Assembly (NCBI GenBank): GCA_012729785.1
Contig: JAAYCL010000042.1
Location: forward strand, 29,743-93,742
Direction of reading: 5' to 3'
Origin: Chlamydiota bacterium
Lineage (GTDB): Bacteria; Auribacterota; Tritonobacteria; UBA1439
DNA: 64,000 nucleotides
This document shows positions 3,909 to 32,110 of the stretch, one piece after another (within the stretch, counting starts at the first letter, position 1; the number at the start of each line of letters is the position of its first letter). A model generated the notes under the pieces. The model had not been told where the DNA came from. It worked only from the letters and a program-made list of their open reading frames with translations, and ran no database searches. The position numbers and the translations under genes are program-made.

Positions 3909-4364
3909 ATGCGCTGGATTCACATCGAGGAGTGGCGCGAGACCGCGGCGGGGGAGTCCGCCGAGGCGGTCCGCACGGTCCCGTCCGACCTCGACTTCAT
4001 GCACGACCAGTATCCGTCGTTCCCCCTGATGCCCCACAGCCTCCTCATCGAGTCGATGGCGCAGACCGGGGGCATCCTGGTCGGCAAGCTCCACGGCTTC
4101 CGGCGCGATGTCATCCTCGCCAAGATCGACCGGGCCGTATTCACGGCGCTCACCCGCCCCGGCGACCGCCTCCAGGTGACCGCCAGAATCGAGGAGCGGC
4201 GGGAGGAGGGGGCGCGGGTCGCCTGCCGCATCACCCGCCAGGGTGAGGAGGTCGCGCAGGCGACGCTCTTCTTCGCGCTCCTCGGCGCCGAGGACGCCGG
4301 GAAGCTCGGTGCGCGCGGGTTCGTCTTCGAGGCGGGGACGTTCTCCCAATTCATCGGGGGCTGA
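3909..4364 (+). CDS. FabZ-like hotdog dehydratase (copy B) with the catalytic His apparently replaced
   Basis: MRWIHIE...DQYPSFPLMPHSLLIESMAQTGG...TRPGDRL; ATG 3909 is the C-terminal part of ORF 3060..4364. Confidence 0.8.
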   Translation: MRWIHIEEWRETAAGESAEAVRTVPSDLDFMHDQYPSFPLMPHSLLIESMAQTGGILVGKLHGFRRDVILAKIDRAVFTALTRPGDRLQVTARIEERREEGARVACRITRQGEEVAQATLFFALLGAEDAGKLGARGFVFEAGTFSQFIGG

Positions 4365-5583
4365 CCGCGGGGGCGAGCAGGTGGAGCGCGGCGCGCTGCT
4401 TCACCCGGTCGTCGAGGGAGAGGAGCATCTCCGCCACCGCGCGCGGGGGTGGCGGCGGGTCCAGCCGCTCGGCGCGCGCGCAGCCCCGGAGCCCGAAGGC
4501 GCGCGTTGCCATCCTGATCCCGTGCGTCACCAGCAGGCCGTTCGCCCCCTCCAGCGGAAGCCCCGACGCGAGCGTCCCCAGCGCGGCGAGCTCGAGCTGT
4601 TCCCGCACCCTGAGCTCGGGGATCGCCCCCGCCCCCTCCCTCAGGAGCGCGAGGTAGAGCAGCGCGGCCGCCCGCGCGTCGTTCACCGCCCGGTGCCACC
4701 CCTCGAAGGCGATGCCCATCAGGCGCGCCATATCCCCGAGACGGTGGCCGGGCGCGTCCGGGTGGAGCCACCGGGAGAGGGCGAGCGTGTCCTCGGCGCG
4801 CCCCCCCGCCTCGCGGCCGAGGCCGAGCAGCGTCTGCTGCCGGAGGAAGGCGAGGTCGAAGGGGGCGTTGTGGGCGACCAGGATGCGCCCCCCGCAGAAG
4901 CCGAGGAGTCCCCGCAGCGCGTCCGGGGCCGCGGGCGCGTCCCGCACCATCTCCTCCGTGATCCCCGTGATCCCGCTGATCTCCTCGGGGATGGGGCCGC
5001 CGGGTTTCACGAAGGTCGAGTAGGCCTCGACCTCGGCGCCGTCGGCGAACCTGACGGCGCCGATCTCGATGATCTCGTCCGCCCACGGGTCCCTGCCGGT
5101 GGTCTCGAAATCGAATGCGACGAAGTCGGACGGATAGTCCAAGGCGCCGCGGCGCGCCGCGGCGTCCACCAAGGCGAGCGCCGCTCCGGAAAGCGAGCAT
5201 CCCGGGGGGGGACAAATCGAAACGCCCGCCCCGCCCTCGAGGATTCCGAGTCGTGTGCCCTGAACCGTCACCCGGAGGCTCGGCCGCGCGGGAACGGCGT
5301 CGAACAGATCGCCCTGCAGGCGGGGCGCGGGGATGTCGAGGCGGGCCGCGAGGGCCAGGACGATCGCCGCCGCAGCGACGGCATCCCCGGAATCCTCGAC
5401 CGAGATCTCAACGGGGCGTTGCGCGGCGGCGGCGTCCAGGAGCGCCTCGACGGCGCCCTCGACGCCCGAAGGAGGGGGGGAAGGGAGGAGGGGGAAGCGC
5501 AGCGGCGAGGAGACCGCATACGGAGGTCGCAGTCGGTCCCTGAGGTATCCGTCGATGCACGCGGGAACCTTGAAAGGCTTCAC
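4351..5583 (-). CDS. DEDDh (DnaQ/epsilon-like) 3'-5' exonuclease embedded in a degenerate RecJ-like scaffold
   Basis: DFETTG, HNAPFD and HRAVND Exo motifs; flanks resemble RecJ segments; GTG start at 5583 after GGGG. Confidence 0.8.
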   Translation of the reverse strand: MKPFKVPACIDGYLRDRLRPPYAVSSPLRFPLLPSPPPSGVEGAVEALLDAAAAQRPVEISVEDSGDAVAAAAIVLALAARLDIPAPRLQGDLFDAVPARPSLRVTVQGTRLGILEGGAGVSICPPPGCSLSGAALALVDAAARRGALDYPSDFVAFDFETTGRDPWADEIIEIGAVRFADGAEVEAYSTFVKPGGPIPEEISGITGITEEMVRDAPAAPDALRGLLGFCGGRILVAHNAPFDLAFLRQQTLLGLGREAGGRAEDTLALSRWLHPDAPGHRLGDMARLMGIAFEGWHRAVNDARAAALLYLALLREGAGAIPELRVREQLELAALGTLASGLPLEGANGLLVTHGIRMATRAFGLRGCARAERLDPPPPPRAVAEMLLSLDDRVKQRAALHLLAPAVSPR

Positions 5584-5666
5584 ATCCCCGCCGCCTTTGT
5601 CTGCGCCGAAAAAACGGCGGAGGGAGACCCGTTCGGGGTCCCCCTCCGCGCGCCCCATGCGACTCG

Positions 5667-6014
5667 CTATTCGATCTCCGCGGGCTTGGCTTCCTCCTCC
5701 TGCGGCTCCTCAACCGCTGCGGGAACCGAGGCCTTGGCGGCCTTCTTCTTGCCCACGCACAGATGCTCGCGCCACTTCTCGAGGGTCTTCGCGCCCACGC
5801 CCTTGACCCTGTCCAGGTCGTCGACGCTGCTGTACGGGCGCCCCTCGATGATGGCCTCGGCCTTCTTCTCGCCGATGCCCTTGACCGTTCTCAACTGGGC
5901 CGCTGTCGCCGTGTTGATGTCCACCTGTCCCTCTTTGCACTGCGCCTGAAGGGGCGAGACGCACAGCAACGAGGCGACCACCGCCAGAAGCACCACTGCT
6001 GCCAGGCACCTCAT
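5667..6014 (-). CDS. comEA: ComEA-family secreted helix-hairpin-helix DNA-binding protein
   Basis: Signal peptide then DINTATAAQLRTVKGIGEKKAEAII...VKGVGAKT; RBS AAAGGAGG before ATG 6014. Confidence 0.85.
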   Translation of the reverse strand: MRCLAAVVLLAVVASLLCVSPLQAQCKEGQVDINTATAAQLRTVKGIGEKKAEAIIEGRPYSSVDDLDRVKGVGAKTLEKWREHLCVGKKKAAKASVPAAVEEPQEEEAKPAEIE

Positions 6015-6076
6015 GGATACACCTCCTTTCCCTGATCCGAAAAGCATAGCATGCCCCCCTGTGGGCGGCAAGTCCC

Positions 6077-6116
6077 AAAAAGCCGCCGAGCCCGCCGGAC
6101 CGGCTGGCTCGACGGC
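6077..6116 (-). terminator. Probable intrinsic terminator after pdp
   Basis: GC-rich imperfect hairpin followed by TTTTT on the minus strand, ~30 nt after the pdp stop. Confidence 0.5.
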
Positions 6117-6143
6117 CCCCGGCGCACCGGCCGTCCCCGCCGT

Positions 6144-7640: not shown

Positions 7641-9023
7641 ATGGACGATGCCAAAGGCCTCCTCGCGGCCCTTGCGGCCGTCGTGGGAGAGGACCACGTC
7701 GTGTCGGCGCCGGAGGAGCTCGCCTGCTACGGCGTCGACGCCGCGAAGGTGCGCGCCGTGCCCGACGTCGTCGTGCGGCCCGCCACCGCCGCGGAGGTCT
7801 CCGGCGTGCTCCGCCTCGCCAACGAGCGGCGCGTGCCCGTCTACCCTCGCGGGGCCGGTTCCGGGCTCACCGGGGGCGCGTCCCCGCTGCGCGGCGGCAT
7901 CGCGCTCGAGATGGCGCGGATGAACCGCATCCTCTCCGTCGATCCAGACGACCTGGTCGCCGTCGTCGAGCCCGGGGTGGTCCTCGCCGACCTCCAGGCC
8001 GCCGTCGAGCGGAAAGGCCTCTTCTACCCGCCGGACCCGGCGAGCAGCGGGTTCTGCACCGTCGGGGGGACGCTTGCGGCGTGCGCGGGGGGGCTCCACT
8101 GCGTGAAGTACGGCGTGACCCGCGACTACCTCCTCTCGGCGGAGGCGGTGCTGCCGACCGGGGAGATCGTCCACACGGGGAGCCGGACCCTGAAGAGCGT
8201 GGTCGGGTACGACCTTGGCCGCCTCCTGGTCGGCTCCGAGGGGACGCTCTGCGTCTTCACCCGCGCCGTCCTGCGCCTCATCCCCCTCCCGGCGTGCGTG
8301 CGGACGGTGATGGCGTTCTTCCGGCGTGTCGACGACGCCGTGGACGCGGCGCACGGCGTCATGCGGAGCGGCATCCTGCCCAGGACGCTCGAGCTGATGG
8401 ACGAGATGACCATCCGGTGCATCGTGGCCTATAAGCCGTTCCCGATGCCGTCGGGCACCCGGGCGATCGTCCTCGCGGAGTCCGATGGCAGCGCGGAGGA
8501 AGCGTCCCGGGAGGTTGGGCGCATGGCGGGGCTCCTTGAATCCTCCTCCGCGCTCGCCGTCGACTGTCCGCCTGACCGGGCGGAGGCCGACCTGCTCTGG
8601 GAGATACGCCGGGCGGCGTCTCCGGCCCTCTATGCCTTGAGCCCGGGCAAGCTGAACGAGGATGTCTGCGTGCCGCTGAGCGGGATGAAGGATCTGCTCC
8701 GCGGCGCCGCCGCGATCGCGGAGCGGAACCGGGTCGCCATCGCCTCGTTCGGGCATGCGGGCGACGGAAACATCCACGTGAACATCCTCTACGACACCGC
8801 GGACGCGGCGGAGCGGGGGAGGGCGGAGAAGGCGGTCGAGGAGCTGTTCCGCCTGGTGCTGGAGGCGGGGGGGAGCATCTCGGGCGAGCACGGGATCGGC
8901 ACCGCCAAGGCCCGCTTCCTCAGCTGGGAGGTCGGGGCGCGCGAGATCGCCCTGATGCGGAGCATCAAGCGACTCCTCGACCCGAATGAGATCCTCAATC
9001 CGGGCAAGATATTCCCGGACTGA
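7641..9023 (+). CDS. glcD: FAD-linked oxidase, glycolate/D-lactate dehydrogenase GlcD family
   Basis: PRGAGSGLTGG, FYPPDPAS, VKYGVTRDY, GHAGDGNIH, SGEHGIG and LNPGKIF motifs. Confidence 0.85.
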   Translation: MDDAKGLLAALAAVVGEDHVVSAPEELACYGVDAAKVRAVPDVVVRPATAAEVSGVLRLANERRVPVYPRGAGSGLTGGASPLRGGIALEMARMNRILSVDPDDLVAVVEPGVVLADLQAAVERKGLFYPPDPASSGFCTVGGTLAACAGGLHCVKYGVTRDYLLSAEAVLPTGEIVHTGSRTLKSVVGYDLGRLLVGSEGTLCVFTRAVLRLIPLPACVRTVMAFFRRVDDAVDAAHGVMRSGILPRTLELMDEMTIRCIVAYKPFPMPSGTRAIVLAESDGSAEEASREVGRMAGLLESSSALAVDCPPDRAEADLLWEIRRAASPALYALSPGKLNEDVCVPLSGMKDLLRGAAAIAERNRVAIASFGHAGDGNIHVNILYDTADAAERGRAEKAVEELFRLVLEAGGSISGEHGIGTAKARFLSWEVGAREIALMRSIKRLLDPNEILNPGKIFPD

Positions 9024-9087
9024 TTCCGAGGGAACCGGGCCGGGCCCCGCGCGCGGTGCGGGCGGCGGTTCGGAGGGGGCGCGCCCC

Positions 9088-10374
9088 ATGGCGACGGATC
9101 CGTGCATACACGAGCTGCGGCAGGAGATCGCGCGCTGCGCGCGCTGCGGGAAATGCCGCGCCGTGTGCCCGACGTTTCTCGCCACCAGGGACGAAGCGCG
9201 GGCAGCCCGCGGGCGCATCAACCTGATGGAGTCGATCCTCGACGGCGCCGCGCCGTTCAGCGCGCGCGCAGCCGAGCTGCTGACGAGCTGCTACGGGTGC
9301 ACGCGCTGCGTGGAGCAGTGCCCCAGCGGCGTCCGCGTCGATCTTCTGATGCAGCGCGCCCGGGAGATGGCGGCGCGCCGGTTCGGCATCCCGCTCCCCG
9401 CGCGCCTGCTGTTCCGGCACGTCCTCCCCCGCCGCCGGCTCTACGACGCGGCGGTGCGTCTCGCGCGCTTCACCCAGCGGTTTCTCCGCAGGAGTCGGGC
9501 GCAGCCGCTGCGCCACCTTCCGCTCCTCTACGAAGGGCGGCGCAGCGTCCCCGCGCTCGCCCGGCGTTCGGCGCTGCATTCGCTTCCGGAGCTGCACAAG
9601 GGGCGCGGGGAGATCAAGGTCTCGCTTTTCCTCGGCTGTCTGCTCAACTACGTCTATCCCGACATCGCCGCGTCGATTTTGAAGATCCTTTCGCTGCACG
9701 GCGTGGACGTGATCGTCCCGAAGGCCCAGCTCTGCTGCGGGGCGCCGGTACTGGCCTCCGGCGACGAGGAGGCGGCGCGCCGCCTCGCCCGGCGCAACCT
9801 GTCCTGTCTAGAGCCGGGGAAGGTGGACGCGGTCGTCTTCGGGTGCGCCTCGTGCGCCCTCACGATGAAGCGGGACTATCCGCGGCTGCTCGGGGGGGCC
9901 GAGGCGCTCGCGGCGAAGATCACCGACATCTCCGAGTTCATACACGCGCGCCTCGGCTACAGCAACCTCCCCCTCGACGACACGGTCACCTACCACGATC
10001 CGTGCCACCTGCGGTGGGGCAGGGGGGTGGGGGAGCCGCCCCGGGAGGTCCTCCGGCGGAGTGCCCGTTACGTGGAGATGGACAGGGCGGGGGACTGCTG
10101 CGGTCTCGGCGGCAGCTTCAGTCTCTCCCACTACGATATCTCCTGTCTCCTGGGGGAGGCGAAGGTCGCCTCGATCCGCGCGAGCGGGGCAACCATCGTG
10201 GCGACCTCCTGTCCGGGCTGCATCCTCCAGCTCGAGGACCAGCTCGCGCGGCAGGGGATGGGAAATCCCGTGGTGCACGTCGCCCAGCTGTACGAGAGGA
10301 GCTTCCTGAAGGGGCGCCTGCCGCTGCCCGGCAGCTCCTCGTCCTCCTCCGGGTTCCTCACCTTGAGCAGGTGA
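9088..10374 (+). CDS. Fe-S oxidoreductase, GlcF family (2x4Fe-4S plus two CCG domains)
   Basis: CARCGKCRAVCP, CYGCTRCVEQCP, LCCGAP, YHDPCHL, CCGLGG and TSCPGC motifs. Confidence 0.85.
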   Translation: MATDPCIHELRQEIARCARCGKCRAVCPTFLATRDEARAARGRINLMESILDGAAPFSARAAELLTSCYGCTRCVEQCPSGVRVDLLMQRAREMAARRFGIPLPARLLFRHVLPRRRLYDAAVRLARFTQRFLRRSRAQPLRHLPLLYEGRRSVPALARRSALHSLPELHKGRGEIKVSLFLGCLLNYVYPDIAASILKILSLHGVDVIVPKAQLCCGAPVLASGDEEAARRLARRNLSCLEPGKVDAVVFGCASCALTMKRDYPRLLGGAEALAAKITDISEFIHARLGYSNLPLDDTVTYHDPCHLRWGRGVGEPPREVLRRSARYVEMDRAGDCCGLGGSFSLSHYDISCLLGEAKVASIRASGATIVATSCPGCILQLEDQLARQGMGNPVVHVAQLYERSFLKGRLPLPGSSSSSSGFLTLSR

Positions 10375-10607
10375 CAATCCCCGGTTCAGGCGCATCATCC
10401 GCCCCGCCCCGGGGCTCCTTCCGTTCCGGTTGTCGGCCTCGCGCCTCGTATCGCGTGCACGAGAGCGGCGCAACCAAGGTTGACAGTGACAACCGGCGTT
10501 GACACCCTCCCCGCGCCTGTCCCCGGCATCCCGCACGAACCGGCATCGTTGCGTTTTGCGCCCGAACACGTTGTGTGCTGTACGCGGCCAGGCCGGTCGC
10601 GGCGGCT

Positions 10608-10624
10608 TGGGCACGAATCTTGCT
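10608..10624 (+). promoter_or_regulatory. Probable sigma-54 (-24/-12) promoter
   Basis: TG-GGCACG-AATC-TTGCT, with GG at 10610-11 and GC at 10622-23 separated by exactly 10 nt. Confidence 0.6.
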
Positions 10625-10698
10625 GTAGTAGACAGATGCGCCCGCGTCGGCGTAGGCGCACGAGGCGCACGGAAAGCGGGGGCGAAGCCGGGGCAGCC

Positions 10699-11847
10699 GT
10701 GAGCGCGCGTCGCGTCCTGCATCGTCTATCTCCGGCGGTTCGGCGCCGCGCGGCGTTGGCGGCGGCGCTCGTCGCCCTGCTGTCCGCGCCGGCCGGCGCG
10801 CAGAAGGCCGAGAAGACGGCGCTCCGCTGCTGGCGCTGCGGGGAGGTGTTCACCGTCCTCCAGCAGGCTTCGGCGGGGCGCTGTCCCGCGTGCCGCACCG
10901 TCTGCAGGAGGGTGGAGGAACCGGGGCTCCTCAAGATCCACTGCCTCGACGCGGGCGCCTCCGGCTGCTCGTTCGTCTGCCGCTGTCCCGGAGGGGAGAC
11001 GGCGGTCTTCGTCGGCGGGCGGGACGGCGAGGGCGAGCGGATCGCCGGCTACCTGGCGGAGCTGGGCGTCGGCGAGATCGCCGTGCTGATCGGCGCGGAG
11101 CCGGAAGGCGGCTGCCTGCGCTCGGTCGTGGAACTGATGCGGCGCTTCAAGGTCGCGCAGCTGTTCGACCCGGGCTTCGGGAGCGGGGAGGCGCGCTACG
11201 CGGAGTATATCGACCTGCTCAGGAGAGAGGAGGTCGACTACCGGGTGGTGCGGGCGATGGAGAACCTCGCCCTGGGGCCGGTCAGGATGTACGTCGTGCG
11301 CGCGGGATCGTTCGGGGACGAGGCGGCGGGGGGCAGGCGCGTGAGCCTCTGCATCGTCCACGGAGGCAACTCGTTTTTGCTCTCCAGGGGCGCGCGCGCC
11401 GGCGCGGCGCCCGCGCAGCCGCCCGTGGACGCGGCGCTCCCCGGATTCCTCTTTACGGGCGACGTCGCGGAGCTGAAGGCGTGCGGCGCCCCGTACGGCC
11501 CGCGCGGCGCGCTGGTGCTGGAGAGCAACGGCGTCGGCATCGGCGTCAAACAGTTCGGGCGGATCACCGTCGCCTCGGCCGGCGGGTCGGACGCGGGGGG
11601 AGGGCCGGGTCCGCCTGCACAGGGCGCCGCGGCCGCCCGTTCCGCCTCGAAGGAGAGGATCAACATCAACAGCGCCTCGGCGCAGGAGCTCGACGCCTTG
11701 AGCGGGATAGGGGCGGCGAAGGCCGCGATGATCGTCGAGTTCCGGCAGGCGAACGGGAGATTCAACCGCATCGAGGATTTGAAGAAGGTCCCCGGTATCG
11801 GGGAGAAGCTCTTCCAGCGCAACAGGGACCGGATCTGCGTCGACTGA
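10699..11847 (+). CDS. Secreted protein: Zn-ribbon, degenerate ComEC-type metallo-beta-lactamase fold, C-terminal ComEA HhH domain (alternative start 10636)
   Basis: Signal-like N-terminus; CWRC..CPAC; LKIHCLDAG...YLAELGV; C-terminal ININSASAQELDALSGIGAAKA...KVPGIGEK. Confidence 0.7.
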   Translation: MSARRVLHRLSPAVRRRAALAAALVALLSAPAGAQKAEKTALRCWRCGEVFTVLQQASAGRCPACRTVCRRVEEPGLLKIHCLDAGASGCSFVCRCPGGETAVFVGGRDGEGERIAGYLAELGVGEIAVLIGAEPEGGCLRSVVELMRRFKVAQLFDPGFGSGEARYAEYIDLLRREEVDYRVVRAMENLALGPVRMYVVRAGSFGDEAAGGRRVSLCIVHGGNSFLLSRGARAGAAPAQPPVDAALPGFLFTGDVAELKACGAPYGPRGALVLESNGVGIGVKQFGRITVASAGGSDAGGGPGPPAQGAAAARSASKERININSASAQELDALSGIGAAKAAMIVEFRQANGRFNRIEDLKKVPGIGEKLFQRNRDRICVD

Positions 11848-11901
11848 GAGGCGAGGGCCCTCTCCCCGGACGCCCGCCCCCGCTGTGGTATACTCTGGGC
11901 G

Positions 11902-13689
11902 ATGAGTGTGCGCACCCTCCGCCGTGCGCGGGCCGCCGCGGCAGCAGGCCCGGGCGCGGCCGCCCTGATCCTCGCCGCCCTCCTGCCGGGCATCGCCGCG
12001 GGGGCGGCGATCCCCGCGCCGCCGGCGGGGGGCGGTTCCGCCTCTTCACGGCAACCGGGGGTCGTTGCCGTTCCGCCGTCACCGCCATCCCCGACGCCGT
12101 CCGTTGTCCCCTCCCCGCCGCCGCTCGAGACGCAGGGGGCGTCCACGGAGTTTCTTCTGCGCTGGGACCGGCGGTACCGGCTCGTGGATCCGGAGGTGGA
12201 TCCGTCGCGCCGCGGCGCCTCGAAGGATTTCGCACGGGGGATCGCCGAGCTCAAGAAGGCGATCCTTACGGGCATCCCCGACGAGGGGATGTACTACCGT
12301 CTCGGCTACTGCTACGAGAAGCTGGGGGATCTCGAGCGGGCGCTGGACGCCTATCGGCGCGCCGCCCCGGACGAGGCGCCTGAAGGGGACGGAGAGTTCG
12401 CCTGCGCGCTCGCCTATCGGCTCGGTCTCGTGCTCGCTCGGATGGGGAAGCACGCGGAGGCGGCGGCGGAGTTCGAGAAGGCGCTCGCCTGTCCCGCCCT
12501 GGCCGCCGCCGCGCGCAACAACCTCGGCAGCTGCTACCGCGTCCTCCACCTGAAAAGGAAGGCGATCGATGAGTTCGAGGCCGCCGCGGCGCTCGATCCG
12601 CGGATGGCCGAGGCGCACCTGAACCTGGGCATCACGCAGGCCGAGCTGGGGCGGACCGATGCCGCCGTGGAATCGCTCCGCAGGGCGCTGGGGCTGGACC
12701 CCCGTCTTCGTGGCGCGGCATACAGTCTCGGCGTCGTGCTCGCCGCGCGGGGCGACGCACGGGGAGCGGAGGAGGCGCTGAGGGCGGCCGCCGCGGCGTT
12801 CCCTGACGACGAGAAGACGCACCTCGCCCTCGCGCGGCTCTACCTCGATTCCGGACGGAAGGAGGAGGCGCGGCGCGCCGCCCGCAGCGCCTTCGCCCTC
12901 ATGCCGGTGCTGCGGGCCGAGAATCTCGACCTCGACACCGCCCTCGGCGGGGAGGCGCCCGCCCCGGCCGCATCCCCCGCCCCGGGGCGGGAGGAGGACG
13001 AGGAGCTCCTCGGGCGGGCGCGCGCCGCCGTCGCGGGGGGGGACCGGGCGGAGGCGGAGCGCCTCTTCTCGGCGCTGCTGAGGCGGAACCCGTCCTCCGC
13101 GGCCGCGTGCCTCGGCCTGGCGTTCCTCAGCGAGTTCTCCGGTTCCGAGCGCTACGGCGCGGGGTTCCCGGAGGAGCGGTGTATCGGCTACTACCGCAGG
13201 GCGCTGGAGGCGCAGCCGGGGATGAGCACGGCCTGGTTCGGCCTTGGGAATGTCTACGAAAAGATCGGCAGGCACGCGGAGGCCGCGGATGCGTTCCGGA
13301 GGGCGGGGGAGCTCTCCCCTGAGATGCGCTTCGCCTGGTACAACCTCGGCGTCTGCTACATCCGCCTCGGGAAGAGGGAGGAGGCGGAGGCGCAGTTCCG
13401 CAGGGCGCTCGCGCTCGACCCCGCGTTCGCCGACGCCCGCTTCCAGCTCGGCGAGGTCCTCGCGTCGCGTCGCGACTACGGGGGGGCCATCGCGGAGTAC
13501 GAGAAGGTGATCGATCTCGTCCCCTCCCACGCGGATGCGCACTACAGCCTCGCGCGGATCTGCCACCGGGAGGCGGCCGATTCGAAAGCGGCCGCCGAGC
13601 ATTACCGCGCCTACCTGGAGCTGCGGCCGGACGCGCCGGACGCGGCGGAGGTACAGGGCTGGATCGAGGAGATGGAAGGGGGGGGCTGA
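11902..13689 (+). CDS. Exported tetratricopeptide-repeat protein
   Basis: Many TPR-like units (AHLNLGITQAELG, AWFGLGNVYEKIG, AWYNLGVCY, ARFQLGEVL); TGTGGTATACT extended -10 upstream. Confidence 0.85.
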   Translation: MSVRTLRRARAAAAAGPGAAALILAALLPGIAAGAAIPAPPAGGGSASSRQPGVVAVPPSPPSPTPSVVPSPPPLETQGASTEFLLRWDRRYRLVDPEVDPSRRGASKDFARGIAELKKAILTGIPDEGMYYRLGYCYEKLGDLERALDAYRRAAPDEAPEGDGEFACALAYRLGLVLARMGKHAEAAAEFEKALACPALAAAARNNLGSCYRVLHLKRKAIDEFEAAAALDPRMAEAHLNLGITQAELGRTDAAVESLRRALGLDPRLRGAAYSLGVVLAARGDARGAEEALRAAAAAFPDDEKTHLALARLYLDSGRKEEARRAARSAFALMPVLRAENLDLDTALGGEAPAPAASPAPGREEDEELLGRARAAVAGGDRAEAERLFSALLRRNPSSAAACLGLAFLSEFSGSERYGAGFPEERCIGYYRRALEAQPGMSTAWFGLGNVYEKIGRHAEAADAFRRAGELSPEMRFAWYNLGVCYIRLGKREEAEAQFRRALALDPAFADARFQLGEVLASRRDYGGAIAEYEKVIDLVPSHADAHYSLARICHREAADSKAAAEHYRAYLELRPDAPDAAEVQGWIEEMEGGG

Positions 13690-15252: not shown

Positions 15253-15945
15253 ATGCACCGGGTCACCTACTCCAAAGAGGGGCTGATTAGGTTCATCTCC
15301 CACCTCGATCTCATCAGGCTCTGGCACAGGGCGTTCAGGAGAGCCGGCCTGCCGGTGAGGATGTCGCGCGGATTCACGCCGCATCCGTCCGTGTCGTTCG
15401 GCCCGCCCCTGCCGCTTGGCGTGGCGGGACAACGGGAGATGCTCGACGTCGCGTTCGACGTCGGCTGCGACCTCTCGGGGGCGCGGGAACGGCTTCAGCA
15501 GGCCCTCCCCGCCGGGGTTCGCGTCGTCGAGCTCCGGCCGGTCCCGGAAGACGGCCCGTCGCTCTGCGCGGAACTGGATCGCGCGACGTACGAGGCGGAG
15601 CTGTGCGGCGCCGAGGCGAACGGCGCCGCGGAGAAGATCGCGGCCGCGCAAGCCGCCGCGAGCATCGTCGTGAAGAAGCATACCGCGAAAGGGGAGCGGT
15701 ACCGCGACATACGTCCCCTTGTGCACCGGCTCGAATGCGGAGAAGGCCCCGGGGGCACCGTCCGGCTCACCTGCACGGTCGGCGTCGGGGACAAGGGGAA
15801 CCTGAACCCGCACGAGCTTCTCGAGGCGCTGCTCGGGGTGCCGGCGGAGCGCGCGAGGGAGATCCCCGTCACGCGCACGGCGCTCCACACGAGCAGGGAC
15901 ACGTCACAGGACAGGCCGCGCGGGCCTGCGTTGAAGAGGCGGTGA
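15253..15945 (+). CDS. Radical-SAM-linked protein, TIGR03936/DUF2344-like
   Basis: YSKEGLIRFISHLDL..RAFRRAGLP..SRGFTPHPSVSFGPPLPLG; usual position upstream of rne/rng. Confidence 0.85.
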   Translation: MHRVTYSKEGLIRFISHLDLIRLWHRAFRRAGLPVRMSRGFTPHPSVSFGPPLPLGVAGQREMLDVAFDVGCDLSGARERLQQALPAGVRVVELRPVPEDGPSLCAELDRATYEAELCGAEANGAAEKIAAAQAAASIVVKKHTAKGERYRDIRPLVHRLECGEGPGGTVRLTCTVGVGDKGNLNPHELLEALLGVPAERAREIPVTRTALHTSRDTSQDRPRGPALKRR

Positions 15946-23450: not shown

Positions 23451-23483
23451 TGTAAGCGCTTCTAAGCCCGAGGTGTCAAGACA

Positions 23484-23942
23484 ATGTTCTACGGCCAGTT
23501 CAGACATTCGATTGACAGCAAGGGACGCCTGATCATCCCCGCCAAATTCAGGGACGCGCTCCGCGAGAATTACATCGAGAAGTTCTGGGTGACCCGCGGC
23601 ATCGAGCGCTGCGTCTACGTCTACACCCCGCGCGAGTGGAACCTCCTGATGGCGAAGTTCAAGGAGCTCTCCCTCACCGCCGGGAAGGCGAGGGACTTCC
23701 TCCGGGGCATGGTCTCCAACGCCTCCGAGGTCGAATGCGACAAGCAGGGGCGGATCATGCTCCCGCAGAACCTCCTCGCGCTCGCCGGGATCACCCGGGA
23801 CGTGGTGGTGGCGGGGATGCTGAGCAGGTTCGAGATATGGGACGAGGCGAGCTGGAAGAGGTACGAGGAGGAGCGAGGGGAGAACTTCGAGGAGATCGCC
23901 GAACAGCTCAACGCGCAGCTCGATGCGGCGCGGGGGCTGTGA
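23484..23942 (+). CDS. mraZ: Division/cell wall cluster transcriptional repressor MraZ
   Basis: MFYGQFRHSIDSKGRLIIP and DKQGRIMLP repeats. Confidence 0.95.
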   Translation: MFYGQFRHSIDSKGRLIIPAKFRDALRENYIEKFWVTRGIERCVYVYTPREWNLLMAKFKELSLTAGKARDFLRGMVSNASEVECDKQGRIMLPQNLLALAGITRDVVVAGMLSRFEIWDEASWKRYEEERGENFEEIAEQLNAQLDAARGL

Positions 23943-24031
23943 GGGGACCGGGCGGGGGGACGCGCACGACGATGCATGCGGCGACGGGATCGACGGTGTT
24001 CGGGAAGCTGGAATTCGGGAGGGGGGTTCTG

Positions 24032-24247
24032 ATGAGACCTGCTCGAACGAGAAGGCCGCTTGCCGAGAAGATCCTCTTCTGGTGCCCCAGACTCGCCTCG
24101 GCGCTCACCGCGGCATGCGCGAAGGATGCGCGGCGGGGGGGGGGCGACGCGGGGACGCTGGCGTCGATGATGGCCGTGAGCGGGAGCATCGACCGCGCGG
24201 GGCGGGCGAGGAACTACTACCGGTTCTACATCCGCCCGATGGCCTGA
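24032..24247 (+). CDS. Small hypothetical protein (71 aa; alternative start 23972) coupled to rsmH
   Basis: GGGAGG RBS; TGA overlaps the rsmH ATG (TGATG); mostly G/C third positions. Confidence 0.5.
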   Translation: MRPARTRRPLAEKILFWCPRLASALTAACAKDARRGGGDAGTLASMMAVSGSIDRAGRARNYYRFYIRPMA

Positions 24248-25173
24248 TGGATGCGCCCCACCTTCCGGTGATGCGGGAGGAGGCGCTGCGGTTGCTCGGC
24301 CTCCGGCCGGGGATGCGCGTGGTCGACGCGACGGTGGGGTGCGGGGGGCACGCGGAGGAGATCGCGAGGCGGATCGGGCCCGGCGGGGTGTTGGTGGGGC
24401 TCGATTGGGACGGGGAGGCGCTCGAGATCGCGCGGAGGCGGCTCGAGAAGGCGGGCCCGGCGGTGCGGTTGCACCGGCGAAGTTTCGCGGAGCTCGCGGC
24501 GGTGCTCGCGGAAGAGGGGATCGGGGAAGCGGACGCACTGCTCTTTGACCTCGGGGTTTCGAGCTTGCAGCTCGACACGGCGGCGCGAGGATTCGGGTTT
24601 CGCGCCCGGGGACCCCTGGATATGCGGATGGACCGGCGCCGCGGCGTCACCGCGGAGGCGCTCCTCAGGGAGAAGGATCCGCGGGAACTGGAGCGGATCT
24701 TCAGGGAGTACGGCGAGGAGACGCTGGCGCGGCCGATCGTTCGGGAGTTCCTCAGGGCGGGCGCGCCGCGCGACACGGAGGCGCTCGCCGGGATCGCGTC
24801 GCGGGTCTACCGGCGCTTCGGGAGGAAGGGCGCGATCCATCCGGCGACGCGGATCTTTCAGGCGCTCCGGATCGCGGTGAACGACGAGCTCGGCGCCCTC
24901 GCCGCGGCCCTGCCGCAGGCGGCGGCGGCGGCCGCGAAGGGGGCGCGGATCGTGGTGATCAGCTTTCACTCGCTCGAGGACCGGATCGTGAAGAGGGCGT
25001 TCGCGGAGGGGGCGCGCGGGTGCATCTGCCCGCCGGGATTGCCGGTCTGCGGGTGCGGCGCCGCGGCGGCGCTGCGGCTGATCACGCGCAAGCCGCTGCG
25101 GCCGACAGCCGAGGAGACGGCGGCGAACCCGCGGGCGCGGAGCGCGCGGTTGCGGGCGGCGGAGAAGCTGTAA
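24247..25173 (+). CDS. rsmH: 16S rRNA m4C1402 methyltransferase
   Basis: HLPVMREE, DATVGCGGH, DLGVSSLQLD, HPATRIFQALRIAVNDEL, ISFHSLEDRIVK, NPRARSARLR. Confidence 0.95.
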   Translation: MDAPHLPVMREEALRLLGLRPGMRVVDATVGCGGHAEEIARRIGPGGVLVGLDWDGEALEIARRRLEKAGPAVRLHRRSFAELAAVLAEEGIGEADALLFDLGVSSLQLDTAARGFGFRARGPLDMRMDRRRGVTAEALLREKDPRELERIFREYGEETLARPIVREFLRAGAPRDTEALAGIASRVYRRFGRKGAIHPATRIFQALRIAVNDELGALAAALPQAAAAAAKGARIVVISFHSLEDRIVKRAFAEGARGCICPPGLPVCGCGAAAALRLITRKPLRPTAEETAANPRARSARLRAAEKL

Positions 25174-25182
25174 ACGGCGTTG

Positions 25183-25329
25183 AACGCGCACACGGGGGCA
25201 GGCCGGGATGGACGGAAGATCTTTATCCGCATCCATTGAAGAGACCAGGAGCTGCGCGGTGCAGCTCGTCAATGATGCACCTCCAACCCTAAAGGTCCCT
25301 GCCGTCGCCGGTCCTGCTCCCGGCGCGTT
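25183..25329 (+). ncRNA. Candidate rod-shaped structured RNA with central bubble (6S-like or novel)
   Basis: About 52 nested base pairs traced by hand over 147 nt; three G-U pairs favour the + strand. Confidence 0.45.
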
Positions 25330-25366
25330 TTCGGATTCCGCGGCTCGAGGCGGGGAGGGCGGAGCG

Positions 25367-25711
25367 ATGCAGCGGGTCCTGATCGTCGACGACGAGCCGG
25401 TCGTGAGGAGGCTCATCGGGATATACCTGCGCGGGCGCTTCATCGTGGAGGAGGCCGAGGACGGCGAGAAGGCGCTTCGCAAGGCCGCCGGCGGCGGGTA
25501 CGACTACGTGATCACCGATGTGCAGATGCCGCGGATGGACGGTCTGCACCTGCTCGGGGAGCTCAAGCGGATCTGTCCGCGCACCTCGGTCATCGTGATG
25601 TCGGCGCTCGGCGAGCTCTACGCCGAGTCGGCGATGGAGCGCGGCGCGCAGACGGTCATCTCGAAACCGTTCGTGCGGGACACGATCCAAACCGCCCTGC
25701 AGTGCGCCTGA
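25367..25711 (+). CDS. Single-domain (CheY-like) response regulator
   Basis: VLIVDDE, ITDVQMP (phospho-Asp), VMSA and SKPF motifs; no output domain. Confidence 0.9.
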   Translation: MQRVLIVDDEPVVRRLIGIYLRGRFIVEEAEDGEKALRKAAGGGYDYVITDVQMPRMDGLHLLGELKRICPRTSVIVMSALGELYAESAMERGAQTVISKPFVRDTIQTALQCA

Positions 25712-25743
25712 ACGCGGCGCGCGGCGGCGGAGGAGGAGCGGGG

Positions 25744-26166
25744 ATGAGGAAGAGGAACCGGAGGCTCAACGAGGGGTTCTCGACCGCCGCGCTCACCGGC
25801 AGATGGATGCTCGTCGCCGTCATCGCGGTCTCGTTGTCGCTCCTCTACGTCTGGCAGCATGTGCAACTGGTGCGCACCGGGTACGCCATCAAGAGGATGG
25901 AGCGGGACCTCGAGAAGTGGCAGAAGGCCAACGAGGCGCTCCACCTCGCCAACGAGCGGCTGAAGAACCCGCAGCGCGTCGAACAGGCGCTCATGCACAA
26001 CAAGCTCGGCCTGGTCTTTCCGCAGGCCAAGGATATCGTCCGGCTTCGCTACCCCCGCCATTCAAAGGCATACGGGAGGGATATATCGGGGAGCGAAGGG
26101 GGCACCGACACTCTTCTGAGCTATATGAGTGGCGGGGGCAGCGCGGCCGGACGGCACAACAGCTAG
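25744..26166 (+). CDS. ftsL: Cell division protein FtsL-like
   Basis: Basic N-terminus, one TM helix, coiled coil ending LKNPQRVEQ..LGL; position just before the PBP gene. Confidence 0.75.
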   Translation: MRKRNRRLNEGFSTAALTGRWMLVAVIAVSLSLLYVWQHVQLVRTGYAIKRMERDLEKWQKANEALHLANERLKNPQRVEQALMHNKLGLVFPQAKDIVRLRYPRHSKAYGRDISGSEGGTDTLLSYMSGGGSAAGRHNS

Positions 26167-26257
26167 TGGCGGTCGCCCCGCCTCCAGGGGCGGGGGTGCG
26201 AGGCGCACCCGTTGTGGGGCGGGGGCGCGTCGGCGGACGCGAAAAGGCGAGTGTGCG

Positions 26258-27988
26258 GTGAGCGGGAACCGGTATCGGCTGAAGTCGTACTCTGTCTACG
26301 CGGTGTTCCTCCTCTGCTTCGCCGGCCTCTACGCCCGCCTCTACGTCCTCCAGATCGTCAACCACCGGGATCTGTCCACGCGCGGCGAGCAGCTCCACCG
26401 CTTCAACGTCAAGATCCAGCCGCGCCGCGGCACCATCCTGGATCGGGAGGGCCGCCCCCTCGCCATGAGCGTCAGCGTGAAGTCCGCCTACGCCGTCCCC
26501 GAGGTCATCGAGTCGCCCGCCGAGACGGCCGCGCTCATCGGGGGCGCGCTCGAGATCCCCCCGGCCGAGATCCTCGAGAAGCTCAACAGAAAATCCAGGA
26601 AGTTCGTCTGGCTCGCCCGGAAGCTCGACGGGAGGGCGGCGGAGCGGCTCGAGGCGCTCGGGCTCGAGGGGGTCGGCTTCCGCGAGGAGGTGCGGCGGGT
26701 CTACCCCCAGGGCGCCCTGCTGAGCCACGTCCTCGGCTTCGTGGATATCGACAACCGCGGGCTCGAGGGGCTCGAGCGCCACGCCGACGCGACCCTGCGC
26801 GGGCAGGCGGGCTGGATGGCCTCCTACCGCGACCGCAAGGGGCGGGAGATCATGACCCTCCGGCGGCGCGACGTGCAGCCGATCGACGGGGCCGACCTCA
26901 CCCTCACGCTGGACGTGGTCATCCAGCACATCGTCGAGAGCGAGCTCGAGAACGGCTGCCGCACCTTCAACGCCCAGGCGGGGTGCATCATCGTGATGAA
27001 CCCGCAGACCGGGGCGGTGCTCGCGATGAGCAGCTGGCCGACCTACGATCCGAACCGCCCCGCGGAGTACCCCCCCGAGGCGCGCCGCAACCGGTGCATC
27101 ACCGACGTCTTCGAGCCGGGTTCGACCTTCAAGGTCATCACGGTGGCCACCGCCCTGGACCGGGGCGTTGTGGCGATCGACGACAAGTTCTTCTGCGAGA
27201 ACGGCGCCTTCAGGGTCGGGAGGCACACCCTCCACGATGTGCACGCCTACGGGACGCTCACGACCGCGGAGATCGTGAAAAAGTCGAGCAACATCGGGGC
27301 CGTGAAGATCGCGATGGTGCTGGGGGAGGAGCAGCTGTACGAGGGGATACGGCAGTTCGGCTTCGGGTCGCCCACGGGGATCGGCCTCCCGGGCGAGGTG
27401 GCGGGGATACTGCATCCGCTGTCGACATGGTCCGGCCTCTCCATCGCGGCGGTCCCGATGGGGCAGGAGATCGGCGTGACGCCGCTCCAGCTCGCCTCGG
27501 CGGTCGCCGCGATCGCCAACGGCGGCCTGGCGATGAAGCCGTACCTCGTCGACTCTGTCCGGGACTCGTCGGGGCGCGTCGTGAAGACGTTCGCCCCGGA
27601 GGTGCGCGGGCGGGTGGTGCGCGAGGCCGCGGCGAAGCTGCTGTCGGAGGCGATGGAGGGGGTGCCGACCCGGGAGGGGACCGCGCCGAAGGCGGCGCTG
27701 GCGGAGTACACGGTCGCGGGGAAGACCGGGACCTCGCAGAAGGTCGAGCCCACCGGGCGCTACTCGCACTCGCGCTTCATCGGGTCGTTCATCGGGTTCG
27801 CCCCTTCGCGGAACCCGGAGGTGCTCGTGCTCGTCGTGCTGGACGAGCCGAGACCGGTCTACTACGGCGGGTCGGTGGCGGGCCCGATCTTCAAGGAGGT
27901 CGCGGGGAGGGTGCTCAAGTATCTCGGGGTGCCGCCGGACAAGGAGACGGACGGGAAGATCGAGGTGGCGATGGGGAGGCCGCGCTGA
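26258..27988 (+). CDS. ftsI: Class B penicillin-binding protein (FtsI/PBP3)
   Basis: RGTILDR, EPGSTFK (SxxK), KSSNIG (SxN) and AGKTGT (KTG) motifs. Confidence 0.92.
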   Translation: MSGNRYRLKSYSVYAVFLLCFAGLYARLYVLQIVNHRDLSTRGEQLHRFNVKIQPRRGTILDREGRPLAMSVSVKSAYAVPEVIESPAETAALIGGALEIPPAEILEKLNRKSRKFVWLARKLDGRAAERLEALGLEGVGFREEVRRVYPQGALLSHVLGFVDIDNRGLEGLERHADATLRGQAGWMASYRDRKGREIMTLRRRDVQPIDGADLTLTLDVVIQHIVESELENGCRTFNAQAGCIIVMNPQTGAVLAMSSWPTYDPNRPAEYPPEARRNRCITDVFEPGSTFKVITVATALDRGVVAIDDKFFCENGAFRVGRHTLHDVHAYGTLTTAEIVKKSSNIGAVKIAMVLGEEQLYEGIRQFGFGSPTGIGLPGEVAGILHPLSTWSGLSIAAVPMGQEIGVTPLQLASAVAAIANGGLAMKPYLVDSVRDSSGRVVKTFAPEVRGRVVREAAAKLLSEAMEGVPTREGTAPKAALAEYTVAGKTGTSQKVEPTGRYSHSRFIGSFIGFAPSRNPEVLVLVVLDEPRPVYYGGSVAGPIFKEVAGRVLKYLGVPPDKETDGKIEVAMGRPR

Positions 27989-28025
27989 AAATCGATCAGA
28001 AGGCGACGGGGAGGGGGCGGAACAG

Positions 28026-29480
28026 GTGAAGCTGGGCGAGCTGCTGGCCGCCGTGCCGGAGTGCCGGGTCAGGGGGGGGCGCGACGCGGAGATCGCGGGG
28101 CTGAGCCTCGATTCCCGGACGGTGCGGGAGGGGTTCCTCTTCGCCGCCCTCCCCGGCGCCCGGAGGGACGGCTGCGACTTCGTGGAGGACGCGGTGAGGC
28201 GGGGGGCGGCGGCGGTGCTCGCGCACCGGGAGATCCCCATCCACGGGCGCGTCCCGCTCGTCATCGCCCCCGACAGCCGGGCGGCGCTGGCGAGGATCGC
28301 GGACCGGTTTCACGGAAGCCCTTCACGCGAGCTCGCGGTGACCGGCGTGACCGGCACGAACGGGAAGACGACCGTCTGCTACCTCGCCCGTTTGATCCTC
28401 GATGCGGCGGGACACAAGACCGCCCTCCTCGGGACCGTGGAGTACCTCCTCGGGAAGCGCTCCATCCCCGCAGAACGCACGACGCCGGAGTCCCCGGCGC
28501 TCCAGGCGATGCTGCGGGAGGCGAAACGGGAGGGGTGCGACGGGGTGGTCATGGAGGTCTCCTCGCACGCGCTCGCGCAGCGCCGGATCGACTGCGTGCG
28601 GTTCGCCACCGCGGTCTTCACCAACCTCGGGCGCGACCACCTCGACTACCACGGCTCCCCGGACGGCTACTTCGAGGCCAAGGCGTCGCTCTTCGCCGCC
28701 CCCGGCCTCGGCCGCGCGGTGGTGAACGTCGACGACCCGCGCGGCCGCCTCCTCGCGGAGCGGAGCGCGGCGCCGGTGATCGCCTATGGGACCGGCGAGC
28801 GGGCGGCGCTCGCGGCGCGGGCGATCGAGACCGGGCCGCGCGGCAGCGGGTTCCAAATGGAGTACGAGGGGCGGCAGATGCCGGTCCGCCTGCCGCTCAT
28901 CGGCCGGCACAACGTGCTCAATGCGCTCGCGGCGGCGGGCGTCGCCCTGGTGGCGGGGGTCGAAGCGGAGGCGGCCGCGGAGGCCCTCTCGAGGGCGGAC
29001 CGGGTGCCGGGACGGCTCGAGGAGGTGCGGGGGAAGCTCCCGTTCCGTGTCTTCATAGACTACGCGCACACCGCCGAGGCGCTCGAGTGCGCCCTCGCCG
29101 CCGCCCGCGGGGCGGGCGGGGGGAACCTCATCGTCGTCTTCGGCTGCGGCGGCGACCGCGACCAATCGAAGCGCCGGCCGATGGGACGAACGGCCGCGCG
29201 GCTGGCGGACGCCGCGATCATCACCACGGACAACCCGCGGGGCGAGGACCCGCTCGAGATCATCGCGGAGATCAGGCGCGGCTTCGAGGAAACGGGGAAA
29301 CGCCCGGTCACGATCCCGGACCGGCGGGAGGCGATCGCGGCGGCTTTGGCGGGGGCGCGGGCGGGCGACGTGGTGCTGGTGGCGGGGAAGGGGCACGAGC
29401 GCACCCAGGAGATCGGGTCCACGGTCGTGCCGTTCAGCGACCGCGACGTCATCGCGGAACTGGCGGGGCCGGGCGAGTGA
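28026..29480 (+). CDS. murE: UDP-MurNAc-tripeptide synthetase
   Basis: GVTGTNGKTT, MEVSSHAL, TNLGRDHLDYH, IDYAHT, FGCGGDRD, DNPR (meso-DAP-type motif) and AGKGHE. Confidence 0.95.
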   Translation: MKLGELLAAVPECRVRGGRDAEIAGLSLDSRTVREGFLFAALPGARRDGCDFVEDAVRRGAAAVLAHREIPIHGRVPLVIAPDSRAALARIADRFHGSPSRELAVTGVTGTNGKTTVCYLARLILDAAGHKTALLGTVEYLLGKRSIPAERTTPESPALQAMLREAKREGCDGVVMEVSSHALAQRRIDCVRFATAVFTNLGRDHLDYHGSPDGYFEAKASLFAAPGLGRAVVNVDDPRGRLLAERSAAPVIAYGTGERAALAARAIETGPRGSGFQMEYEGRQMPVRLPLIGRHNVLNALAAAGVALVAGVEAEAAAEALSRADRVPGRLEEVRGKLPFRVFIDYAHTAEALECALAAARGAGGGNLIVVFGCGGDRDQSKRRPMGRTAARLADAAIITTDNPRGEDPLEIIAEIRRGFEETGKRPVTIPDRREAIAAALAGARAGDVVLVAGKGHERTQEIGSTVVPFSDRDVIAELAGPGE

Positions 29481-29548
29481 TCACGCGGGAGGAGAGGCGG
29501 GCGGGGCGGCCGGAGTGGCGCGGCCTGATCGGGAGGAGCGAGCTCCGG

Positions 29549-30946: not shown

Positions 30947-30970
30947 GGCGCACGAGACGGTGAGGGACGC

Positions 30971-32068
30971 ATGCTGTACTACATCCTGTACCCGCTGCGG
31001 GAGCGGTTCTTCGGCTTCAACGTCATCCGGTACATCACCTTCCGGTCCGTGGCGGCGGCCGTGACCGCGATGGTGCTGAGCATCGTCATCGGCCCGTGGG
31101 TGATACGGAAGCTGCACGAGCTCGAGATCGGCCAGCCCGTCCGGCGCGACTGGTTCCCCCTCTTCGCGCAGCACAAGGGCAAGGAGGGGACGCCCACCAT
31201 GGGCGGGGCGCTCGTCATCCTCGCGGTGCTCGTCTCCTGCGCCCTCTGGGCCGACATCCTGAACCGGTTCGTGCTCCTCGCCCTCTTCGCCCTCATCTGG
31301 CTCGGGGGGATCGGATTCATCGACGACTATTTGAAGGTGGCCAGGCGAAGCCCGCAGGGATTGGGCGCCAAGCGCAAGCTCGCGGGACAGGTCGTCCTCG
31401 GGCTCTTCGTGGGATTCTATCTCCTCCACCACCCGGTCACGGCGCCGTACGCCGCCGAGATCAGCGTGCCGTTCCTCAAGACGCCGGTGGTCACGGATCT
31501 GGGCCTCCTCTACATCGTCTTCGCCCTGCTCATCCTCGCCGGGAGCTCCAACGCGGTGAACCTCACCGACGGCCTCGACGGGCTGGCGATCGGCTGCGTG
31601 GTCAGCGCGGCCCTCGTCTACGCGGTGATGAGCTACGTGGCCGGCCACGCGCAGTTCGCCTCCTACCTCCAGATCCGCCACATCCCGGGGAGCGGGGAGC
31701 TGGCGGTCTTCTGCGCGGCCATCGTGGGCGCGGGGCTCGGCTTCCTCTGGTACAACGCCCACCCCGCCGATATCTTCATGGGCGATACGGGGTCGCTCGC
31801 CCTCGGCGGCGCCGTCGGGATCGTCGCCATCCTGATCAAGCGGGAACTCGCCCTGCTGCTGGTGGGCGGGGTCTTCGTGATGGAGGCCGTCTCGGTTATG
31901 CTCCAGGTCGCCTCGTTCAAGCTCACTGGGAAAAGGATCTTCCGGATGGCGCCGATCCACCACCATTTCGAGATGAAGGGGTGGTCCGAGACGAAGGTCG
32001 TGGTCCGGTTCTGGATCCTGGCGCTCGTTTTCGGGCTGATCGGGCTCGGGGCGTTGAAGCTGCAGTAG
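30971..32068 (+). CDS. mraY: Phospho-MurNAc-pentapeptide transferase
   Basis: KEGTPTMGG, GFIDDY, SNAVNLTDGLDGL, FMGDTGS, MAPIHHHFE. Confidence 0.97.
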   Translation: MLYYILYPLRERFFGFNVIRYITFRSVAAAVTAMVLSIVIGPWVIRKLHELEIGQPVRRDWFPLFAQHKGKEGTPTMGGALVILAVLVSCALWADILNRFVLLALFALIWLGGIGFIDDYLKVARRSPQGLGAKRKLAGQVVLGLFVGFYLLHHPVTAPYAAEISVPFLKTPVVTDLGLLYIVFALLILAGSSNAVNLTDGLDGLAIGCVVSAALVYAVMSYVAGHAQFASYLQIRHIPGSGELAVFCAAIVGAGLGFLWYNAHPADIFMGDTGSLALGGAVGIVAILIKRELALLLVGGVFVMEAVSVMLQVASFKLTGKRIFRMAPIHHHFEMKGWSETKVVVRFWILALVFGLIGLGALKLQ

Positions 32069-32110
32069 GACGCGCGCGGCGCGCGGCGGGACCGGAGAGG
32101 GCGGACGGGG

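Follow-up and report, generated by a model that had tools for sequence, protein, structure and literature searches.

A putative sigma-54-dependent promoter with tandem upstream palindromes ahead of a gene for a predicted secreted ComEC-like/ComEA-type protein in the candidate phylum Auribacterota

Gene Order at the Locus

The stretch of DNA analyzed here as a whole (64 kb; in the following referred to as the window) has a G + C content of 71% and belongs to a member of the candidate phylum Auribacterota, an uncultured bacterium from wastewater. DNA identical to it was found in runs from activated sludge, bioreactors, manure, and anaerobic digesters. The local gene order around the intergenic region under study, which is conserved across orthologous contigs, comprises the following features.

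Minus strand: pyrimidine-nucleoside phosphorylase-like gene, recognized from its own sequence and from the syntenic gene in the orthologous locus L176
7641–9023: gene of a glcD-like FAD oxidase, upstream of the glcF-like gene
8986–10374: gene of a glcF-like Fe-S protein, the last gene before the intergenic region
Intergenic region of 324 bp between the glcF-like gene and the 382-aa gene
10699–11847, plus strand: coding sequence of 382 amino acids with a GTG start at 10699; predicted product with signal peptide, CxxC...CxxC zinc ribbon, ComEC-like metallo-beta-lactamase (MBL)-fold domain, and C-terminal ComEA-type HHH_3 domain
11902–13689: gene of a tetratricopeptide-repeat (TPR) protein, directly downstream neighbor of the 382-aa gene
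After the TPR gene: genes of DUF116, GNAT acetyltransferase, DUF2344, and RNase G

The Predicted Product of the 382-aa Gene

The GTG at 10699 is supported as start codon by the N-termini of homologues. The protein carries a Sec-type signal peptide at its N-terminus and is predicted to be soluble and secreted. Its CxxC...CxxC zinc ribbon gave a weak Pfam match (E 9e-4, below the Pfam cut-off), with cysteines that are invariant, and the C-terminus consists of a double helix-hairpin-helix DNA-binding domain (HHH_3, PF12836; E 4e-23). An AlphaFold2 model of the protein reached a mean pLDDT of 73. When this model was queried with Foldseek, the best structural match of residues ~75–295 was the beta-lactamase-like domain of ComEC (9ic4; E 6e-9, target-normalized TM-score 0.53), and the HHH domain matched ComEA (8dss_B; 43% identity, rmsd 0.7 Å over 63 residues). 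The metal-binding motif HxHxDH was found in none of 23 homologues; H221 is the only invariant histidine (22–23 homologues), and invariant cysteines are present instead. The MBL-fold protein probably is not a nuclease. Full-length relatives of the 382-aa protein were found only among sequences named Candidatus Aureabacteria or Auribacterota and among unnamed metagenome contigs.

Canonical ComEA is a small protein composed of an anchor, an optional SLBB domain, and the HhH domain that follows. The 382-aa protein shares the C-terminal HHH_3 domain with ComEA (that of Geobacillus; PDB 8dss), but differs from it as a predicted secreted protein of 382 amino acids in which a zinc ribbon and an MBL fold precede the HhH domain. 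Likewise, its modeled central part most closely resembles the beta-lactamase-like domain of ComEC (PDB 9ic4), but the protein has neither the HxHxDH motif nor the competence channel or membrane domain of ComEC. An earlier interpretation of the window from its letters alone (the sequence-only reading) had described a DNA-uptake-type gene with a ComEA domain, subject to an unusual mode of competence regulation. The first of these terms is fair for the parts of the protein, and the HHH_3 match confirms the domain; the canonical small ComEA architecture, however, is absent, and the predicted product is a fusion of a ComEC-like MBL fold and a ComEA-type HhH domain. For a secreted protein of this kind, competence regulation was an over-reading. 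The ComEA of model organisms is under the control of ComK or of TfoX/QstR/CRP-type regulators, and a literature search for comEA in connection with sigma-54 or rpoN found no link. The combination of a ComEC-like MBL fold without catalytic residues and a ComEA helix-hairpin-helix suggests an undescribed extracellular DNA-handling protein. On a more far-reaching and doubtful reading (the phylum-specific module taken up below), and if this protein captures extracellular DNA, be it for uptake, nutrition, or matrix building, it would be part of a signal-gated DNA-capture system that has no described counterpart.

A small canonical ComEA-like HHH_3 gene is located elsewhere in the window (5667–6143, minus strand). 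It adjoins the gene of an RNase_T-family exonuclease (4351–5709) and the pyrimidine-nucleoside phosphorylase gene, all of them within or near 4351–6143 on the minus strand, and this trio is also kept in the distant locus L176 (535–2329).

The Sigma-54-Type Promoter Core and Its Conservation

The intergenic region and the stretch past the 3′ end of the 382-aa gene contain the following elements.

10468–10485, plus strand: site A of the putative enhancer (upstream activating sequence, UAS), 18-bp palindrome GCGCAAC-CAAG-GTTGACA, center at about −158
10487–10504, plus strand: site B of the putative enhancer, 18-bp palindrome TGACAAC-CGGC-GTTGACA, center at about −139
10505–10608, plus strand: non-conserved enhancer-promoter spacer of about 105 bp (presumed DNA loop), kept in length and not in sequence
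10609–10624, plus strand: sigma-54-type promoter GGGCACGAATCTTGCT, with GG at 10610–10611 (−25/−24) and GC at 10622–10623 (−13/−12)
10633–10637, plus strand: predicted transcription start (+1 at about 10635), derived from the −12 position
11848–11990, plus strand: 3′ boundary zone, as seen from contig ends, in which most transcript contigs end

The GGCACG-N4-TTGCT element that the sequence-only reading had reported, with its exact GG-N10-GC spacing, is indeed present: GGCACG occupies 10610–10615, AATC 10616–10619, and TTGCT 10620–10624, and the gap between GG and GC measures exactly 10 nt. Compared with the consensus TGGCAC-N5-TTGCW, GGGCACGAATCTTGCT matches at 10 of the 11 specified positions, the sole mismatch being a G for T before the GG. 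It is the only sequence with at most one mismatch to this consensus on both strands of the 64 kb. The chance expectation per 64-kb window is 0.66 for such a match and 0.33 for GGCAC-N5-TTGC, and since the motif count is not above chance (0.33–0.66 expected), the window sequence alone establishes nothing. The site is intergenic and on the strand of the gene, 235 nt past the stop codon of the glcF-like gene and 76 nt ahead of the GTG start (10699); the chance of finding the core motif in one such intergenic region is 0.001–0.007. Its significance derives from this position and from conservation, and not from the number of matches in a single window. No credible sigma-70 promoter was detected within the intergenic region, the only candidate being a weak GTGACA-16-CATCAT at 10371–10398.

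Fourteen orthologous loci, with the window counted as one of them, were compared. Protein-alignment scans of genome and metagenome contigs were dominated by the generic HhH pattern, and L001 was the sole true orthologue there. The motif GGCA[CT]-N5-TTGC occurs on the strand of the gene in the orthologous intergenic regions of 10 of the 14 loci (the window, L161, L162, L164, L166, L168, L170, L001, L172, and L178; referred to as sigma-54-type loci), which have a G + C content of 55–71% and encode proteins 40–88% identical to that of the window. In a comparison anchored at the GG only GGCA.g..tcTTGC was conserved, and the 30 nt on each side were not. A MAFFT alignment of nine regions (A2) yielded as invariant columns GGCA, TTGC, and the upstream half-sites, plus three isolated positions. 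The core is invariant in the ten orthologous loci while the flanks diverge, which bears out the −24/−12 promoter of the sequence-only reading.

A chance match without function would fit the window taken by itself, as one match per 64 kb is within expectation (0.33–0.66). It is, however, effectively refuted by the ten orthologous loci in which motif, orientation, and spacing to the palindromes persist amid unalignable flanks, and its probability is practically nil. A neighbor-joining tree of the proteins placed the sigma-54 architecture in three deep lineages. From the position of protein P0022 in the protein tree, a promoter of the sigma-54 type was predicted before the corresponding locus L178 was fetched, and this locus contained the full architecture as predicted, with palindromes at 1410 and 1429, the core CTGGCACTCTTCTTGCG at 1544, and a spacing of 135 bp.

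Tandem Palindromes Upstream of the Core

The enhancer that had been proposed to lie about 150 bp upstream was upheld by the comparison. Tandem palindromes, situated ~140–160 bp upstream in the window, accompany the promoter core in all ten sigma-54-type loci, although the intervening sequence cannot be aligned. Their consensus is TG(G/A)CAAC-N4-GTTGACA, and the first CAAC is located 135–140 bp upstream of the −24 GG in 10/10 loci. Site B begins exactly 19 bp after site A (the positions −158 and −139 being reckoned from a start at 10635), an offset that is the same in all ten loci, with half-sites of site B being partly degenerate in L001, L172, and L178. Site A reads CAAC-N4-GTTGAC at the equivalent position in nine of the ten loci and CAAC-N4-GTTTAC in L168; the chance of this motif is ≤0.0007 per intergenic region. 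Enhancers of bacterial enhancer-binding proteins (bEBPs) are dyad-symmetric sites, usually in tandem, about 80–200 bp upstream of the −24/−12 element, and the UAS of the window has this form, consisting of two 18-bp palindromes 19 bp apart with the same geometry in ten loci.

The comparison also redefined the repeat units recognized before. The palindrome GGTTGACAGTGACAACC (10478–10494; GGTTG-N7-CAACC) exists, but joins the right half of site A to the left half of site B; the units proper are the two CAAC-N4-GTTG palindromes. CAACC-AA-GGTTG (CAACCAAGGTTG) is found at 10471–10482. Of the inverted pair CCGGTTGTC (10426–10434) and GACAACCGG (10488–10496), both arms are in place, but the one at 10426 is not conserved: in the window it does not reach the cut-off score of the enhancer weight matrix, and it has no counterpart upstream in L161, the closest ortholog. 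This third arm is probably due to chance. The weight matrix, which was built from the palindrome sites, gave no further match in scans of the window and of other Auribacterota loci. The enhancer is thus specific to the 382-aa gene in the sequence available, and its motif can serve in searches for the cognate activator and the regulon of that activator.

Both palindromes end in a perfect TTGACA hexamer (10480 and 10499), and the two hexamers are kept in orthologues, as one would expect if they were −35 boxes of a sigma-70 promoter and the GG-N10-GC match were incidental. Yet no −10 element is present 16–18 bp downstream of them in the window, the sequence following the hexamers is not conserved, and the hexamers are accounted for as right halves of the CAAC-N4-GTTGACA palindromes. 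Together with the transcript data and the sister-clade promoters described below, this makes a −35 function extremely unlikely.

The spacer at 10505–10608 contains modestly AT-richer patches. A site for IHF or another bending protein between enhancer and promoter is common and not obligatory; the E. coli-type IHF consensus WATCAANNNNTTR (≤2 mismatches) had no positionally conserved match in the enhancer-promoter spacers. A weakly conserved (A/T)T..G block was observed ~40–45 bp upstream of the −24 GG in 9/9 aligned regions (A2 columns 122–125; ~10568–10575 in the window), which could be a site of a bending protein or a product of chance.

Transcript Boundaries

A contig over the 382-aa gene was present in each of 13 metatranscriptome assemblies of low depth, which came from five studies (X25, X27–31, X34–36, and X42–45). 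As assembled contigs are strandless and have lost the transcript ends, they only bracket the start. Their 5′ ends were located at 10612, 10626, 10645, 10649, 10650, 10655, 10655, 10658, 10659, 10659, 10679, 10693, and 10716, and the median of 10655 compares with the predicted +1 at 10635 (a comparison based on assembled, strandless contigs). Depth over the gene was 6–30 and over the flanking genes 0–6, corresponding to 2–8 times the highest depth of the neighbors. A transcript boundary and a depth step coincide with the promoter, and the 382-aa gene is among the best-expressed genes of its neighborhood in anaerobic digesters. No contig of the 13 assemblies covered 10505–10611. A start at the TTGACA hexamers (10480/10499), which the sequence-only reading had named as the contrary outcome, thus finds no support; this gap equally disagrees with their use as −35 boxes. 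Two contigs, with 5′ ends at 10612 and 10626, extend upstream beyond the predicted +1 by 23 and 9 nt. We assume that these reflect background read-through, the alternative being a different, heterogeneous start.

Co-transcription of the 382-aa gene with the upstream glcD/glcF-like genes would turn the 5′ boundary at ~10612–10660 into a product of RNA processing and leave the motifs to serve another purpose. The two contigs starting upstream of the predicted +1 are compatible with this scenario, as are contigs that cross the intergenic region in the very deep or DNA-containing runs X26, X32, and X33. It is contradicted by the depth of the gene relative to its neighbors and by the coverage gap in the 13 runs; moreover, processing leaves unexplained why GG-N10-GC lies at a fixed distance from tandem palindromes and why a sigma-70 promoter takes their place in sister clades. 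We regard co-transcription as very unlikely. Runs X18–20, X26, X32, and X33, although labeled RNA, were set aside due to their 20-kb contigs or very deep coverage; their contigs span everything and therefore are uninformative on transcript ends.

Contig 3′ ends were found at 11912, 11915, 11915, 11922, 11951, 11973, and 11986; two contigs read through to 12127 and 12189. Since most contigs end within 11912–11990, the mRNA appears to be largely monocistronic, and depth over the downstream TPR gene was much lower than over the 382-aa gene. The 3′ boundary zone at 11848–11990 contained no canonical terminator. RNA folding z-scores of 0.07 for the 5′ UTR and 1.12 for the 3′ boundary indicate that neither is structured beyond chance, and no RNA family was found close to the promoter locus with Rfam.

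A leaderless mRNA starting at the in-frame ATG at 10636 was considered because an ATG is situated exactly at the predicted +1 of L164. It was rejected as a general feature since the −12 C and the start codon are separated by anything from 24 to 351 nt, in L178 the ATG closest to the +1 is not in frame, and alignment of the protein N-termini coincides with the GTG at 10699.

Replacement by Sigma-70-Type Promoters in Sister Clades

The remaining 4 of the 14 loci lack the sigma-54 core and contain either sigma-70-type promoters (L171, L174, and L176) or a short, repeat-filled spacer (L175). The sigma-70-type promoters of the orthologues are located as follows.

L171, 271–299: sigma-70 promoter
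L174, 3357–3385: sigma-70 promoter
L176, 4076–4104: sigma-70 promoter

The sister clade represented by L171 and L174 has neither the −24/−12 element nor the palindromes and shares a conserved TTGCCA-N17-TATAAT ~45 bp before the ATG. L176, which also lacks both the −24/−12 element and the palindromes, contains TTGGTC-N17-TATAAT with a TG extension (extended −10). In the short spacer of L175, neither a sigma-54-type nor a sigma-70-type promoter was found. The absence of both parts from L171 and L174 and the extended −10 promoter of L176 indicate that promoter core and enhancer are gained or lost as one unit, and where the two are absent an ordinary sigma-70 promoter appears to replace them. The canonical spacing of TTGCCA-N17-TATAAT close to the start codon also shows what genuine sigma-70 promoters of this gene look like in the sister clades, which is a further argument against a −35 function of the distant TTGACA hexamers in the window. 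The exchange of a sigma-54 promoter plus enhancer for a sigma-70 promoter among orthologues makes this gene a useful case of promoter-class turnover; if the idea of a phylum-specific module taken up below holds, nature would have carried out here an experiment on the exchange of sigma-54 for sigma-70 promoters.

Candidate Factors, Comparison with Known Systems, and Proposed Mechanism

Taken together, 10468–10624 is likely a genuine sigma-54-dependent promoter with a tandem upstream activating sequence, as judged from motif conservation and geometry. The six-frame translations of the 64-kb window and the Auribacterota loci scanned contained no rpoN (RpoN box), no bEBP (GAFTGA, Walker A) was encoded in either, and a Pfam search of 28 window ORFs gave no Sigma54_activat domain. 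Sigma-54 and the bEBP are therefore assumed here and not seen. The same lack of both genes would agree with other factors binding the two elements: GGCA-N6-TTGC might be recognized by a repressor or by a sigma factor particular to this lineage, for instance, and the palindromes by a classical dimeric regulator. In addition, the palindrome TG(G/A)CAAC-N4-GTTGACA is not known to correspond to any bEBP site. However, the conserved GGCA[CT]G...TTGC positions with their GG-N10-GC spacing are exactly those contacted by sigma-54, and this spacing is not known from any other sigma family. The two dyads are located ~115–140 bp from the promoter at a conserved distance that is typical of enhancers and not of repressors, and a second locus of the phylum (in L172) has the same layout with different dyads. 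Binding by other factors is thus unlikely, and sigma-54 together with a bEBP is the preferred explanation.

The archetype of a sigma-54 promoter with enhancer is the enterobacterial glnAp2 with its tandem NtrC sites. The arrangement in the window resembles it in having a TGGCAC-N5-TTGC-type GG-N10-GC core without −35/−10 elements and a tandem pair of dyad-symmetric activator sites that lie over 100 bp upstream, about two helical turns apart. It differs in the dyad itself, which is TG(G/A)CAAC-N4-GTTGACA as opposed to the TGCACC-N5-GGTGCA type of glnAp2, and in the location of the sites, with an offset of 19 bp and a greater upstream distance (−139 and −158). Furthermore, the target is a predicted secreted DNA-binding protein instead of a nitrogen-assimilation gene, and the host belongs to the Auribacterota. 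A second parallel is the control of type IV pilin genes by PilR and sigma-54 in Pseudomonas, Geobacter, and Myxococcus. There, too, sigma-54 and a bEBP (proposed here) drive a component of the cell exterior that is linked to DNA uptake, but the target in the window is not a pilin, and neither PilR nor PilS was seen. On its reverse strand (…GTGTC…TTGTC…CTGTC…), the enhancer may resemble PilR sites. One study, which makes no mention of sigma factors, reports that type IV pili are encoded in Auribacterota genomes (PMC9324843).

We infer sigma-54 and a bEBP as binding factors, DNA looping, the exact +1, and a dependence on a signal. The sigma-54 holoenzyme would bind GG (10610–10611)-N10-GC (10622–10623) as a closed complex, and a dimer of dimers or hexamer of the bEBP would occupy both 18-bp palindromes near −158 and −139. 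By looping of the ~105-bp spacer the bEBP would reach the polymerase, and its ATP hydrolysis would open the promoter. Transcription would then start near 10635 and give rise to an essentially monocistronic mRNA for the secreted ComEC-like MBL/ComEA HhH protein. Such a mechanism is textbook; what is notable are the lineage, the activator motif, the unusual target protein, and the promoter-class turnover. With promoter class, enhancer motif, and target gene, this provides a first regulatory element with good support for the Auribacterota, a candidate phylum that is uncultured. A more far-reaching idea, which is conceivable but doubtful, is that of a phylum-specific module in which a secreted pseudo-nuclease (the ComEC-like MBL fold lacking catalytic histidines) joined to a ComEA domain was ancestrally gated by a dedicated bEBP that recognizes TG(G/A)CAAC-N4-GTTGACA and, in some lineages, came under constitutive sigma-70 promoters.

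Additional Observations

Locus L172, part of another, metagenome-assembled Auribacterota genome, contains a second strong sigma-54-type site, TGGCATGAATCTTGCTT, at 15445 (element span 15285–15461). It is preceded at about −130/−150 by the different palindromes CTGTTC-N7-GAACAG (about 15285–15303 and 15308–15325), and the gene downstream of it lies beyond the end of the locus. This second site suggests that a sigma-54 system is in general use in the Auribacterota.

Short tandem or inverted repeats fill the leaders or spacers of some orthologues (L172, 3926–4275; L174, 3120–3160; L175, 3020–3110). They include copies of ATCTGTGTTCATCTGTG in a leader of ~350 nt, GAAACGA repeated five times, and arrays of CAGAATYCAGAAT.

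In the window, an extended −10-like element, TGGTATACT, was noticed at 11886–11904, ending 7 nt before the ATG of the TPR gene (11902), which suggests that the mRNA of this gene may be leaderless or near-leaderless. ARAGORN called a tRNA-Ser(cga) at 53617–53704 on the minus strand within an ORF of 1064 amino acids; this is probably a false positive, as Rfam gave no confirmation at the gathering threshold. The dcw cluster of cell-division and cell-wall genes extends from mraZ to ftsZ (23466–40887). Between its mraW (23824–25173) and a PBP/ftsI-like gene (26129–27988), the gap in which ftsL usually resides, it contains a gene for a receiver-only response regulator (25184–25711).
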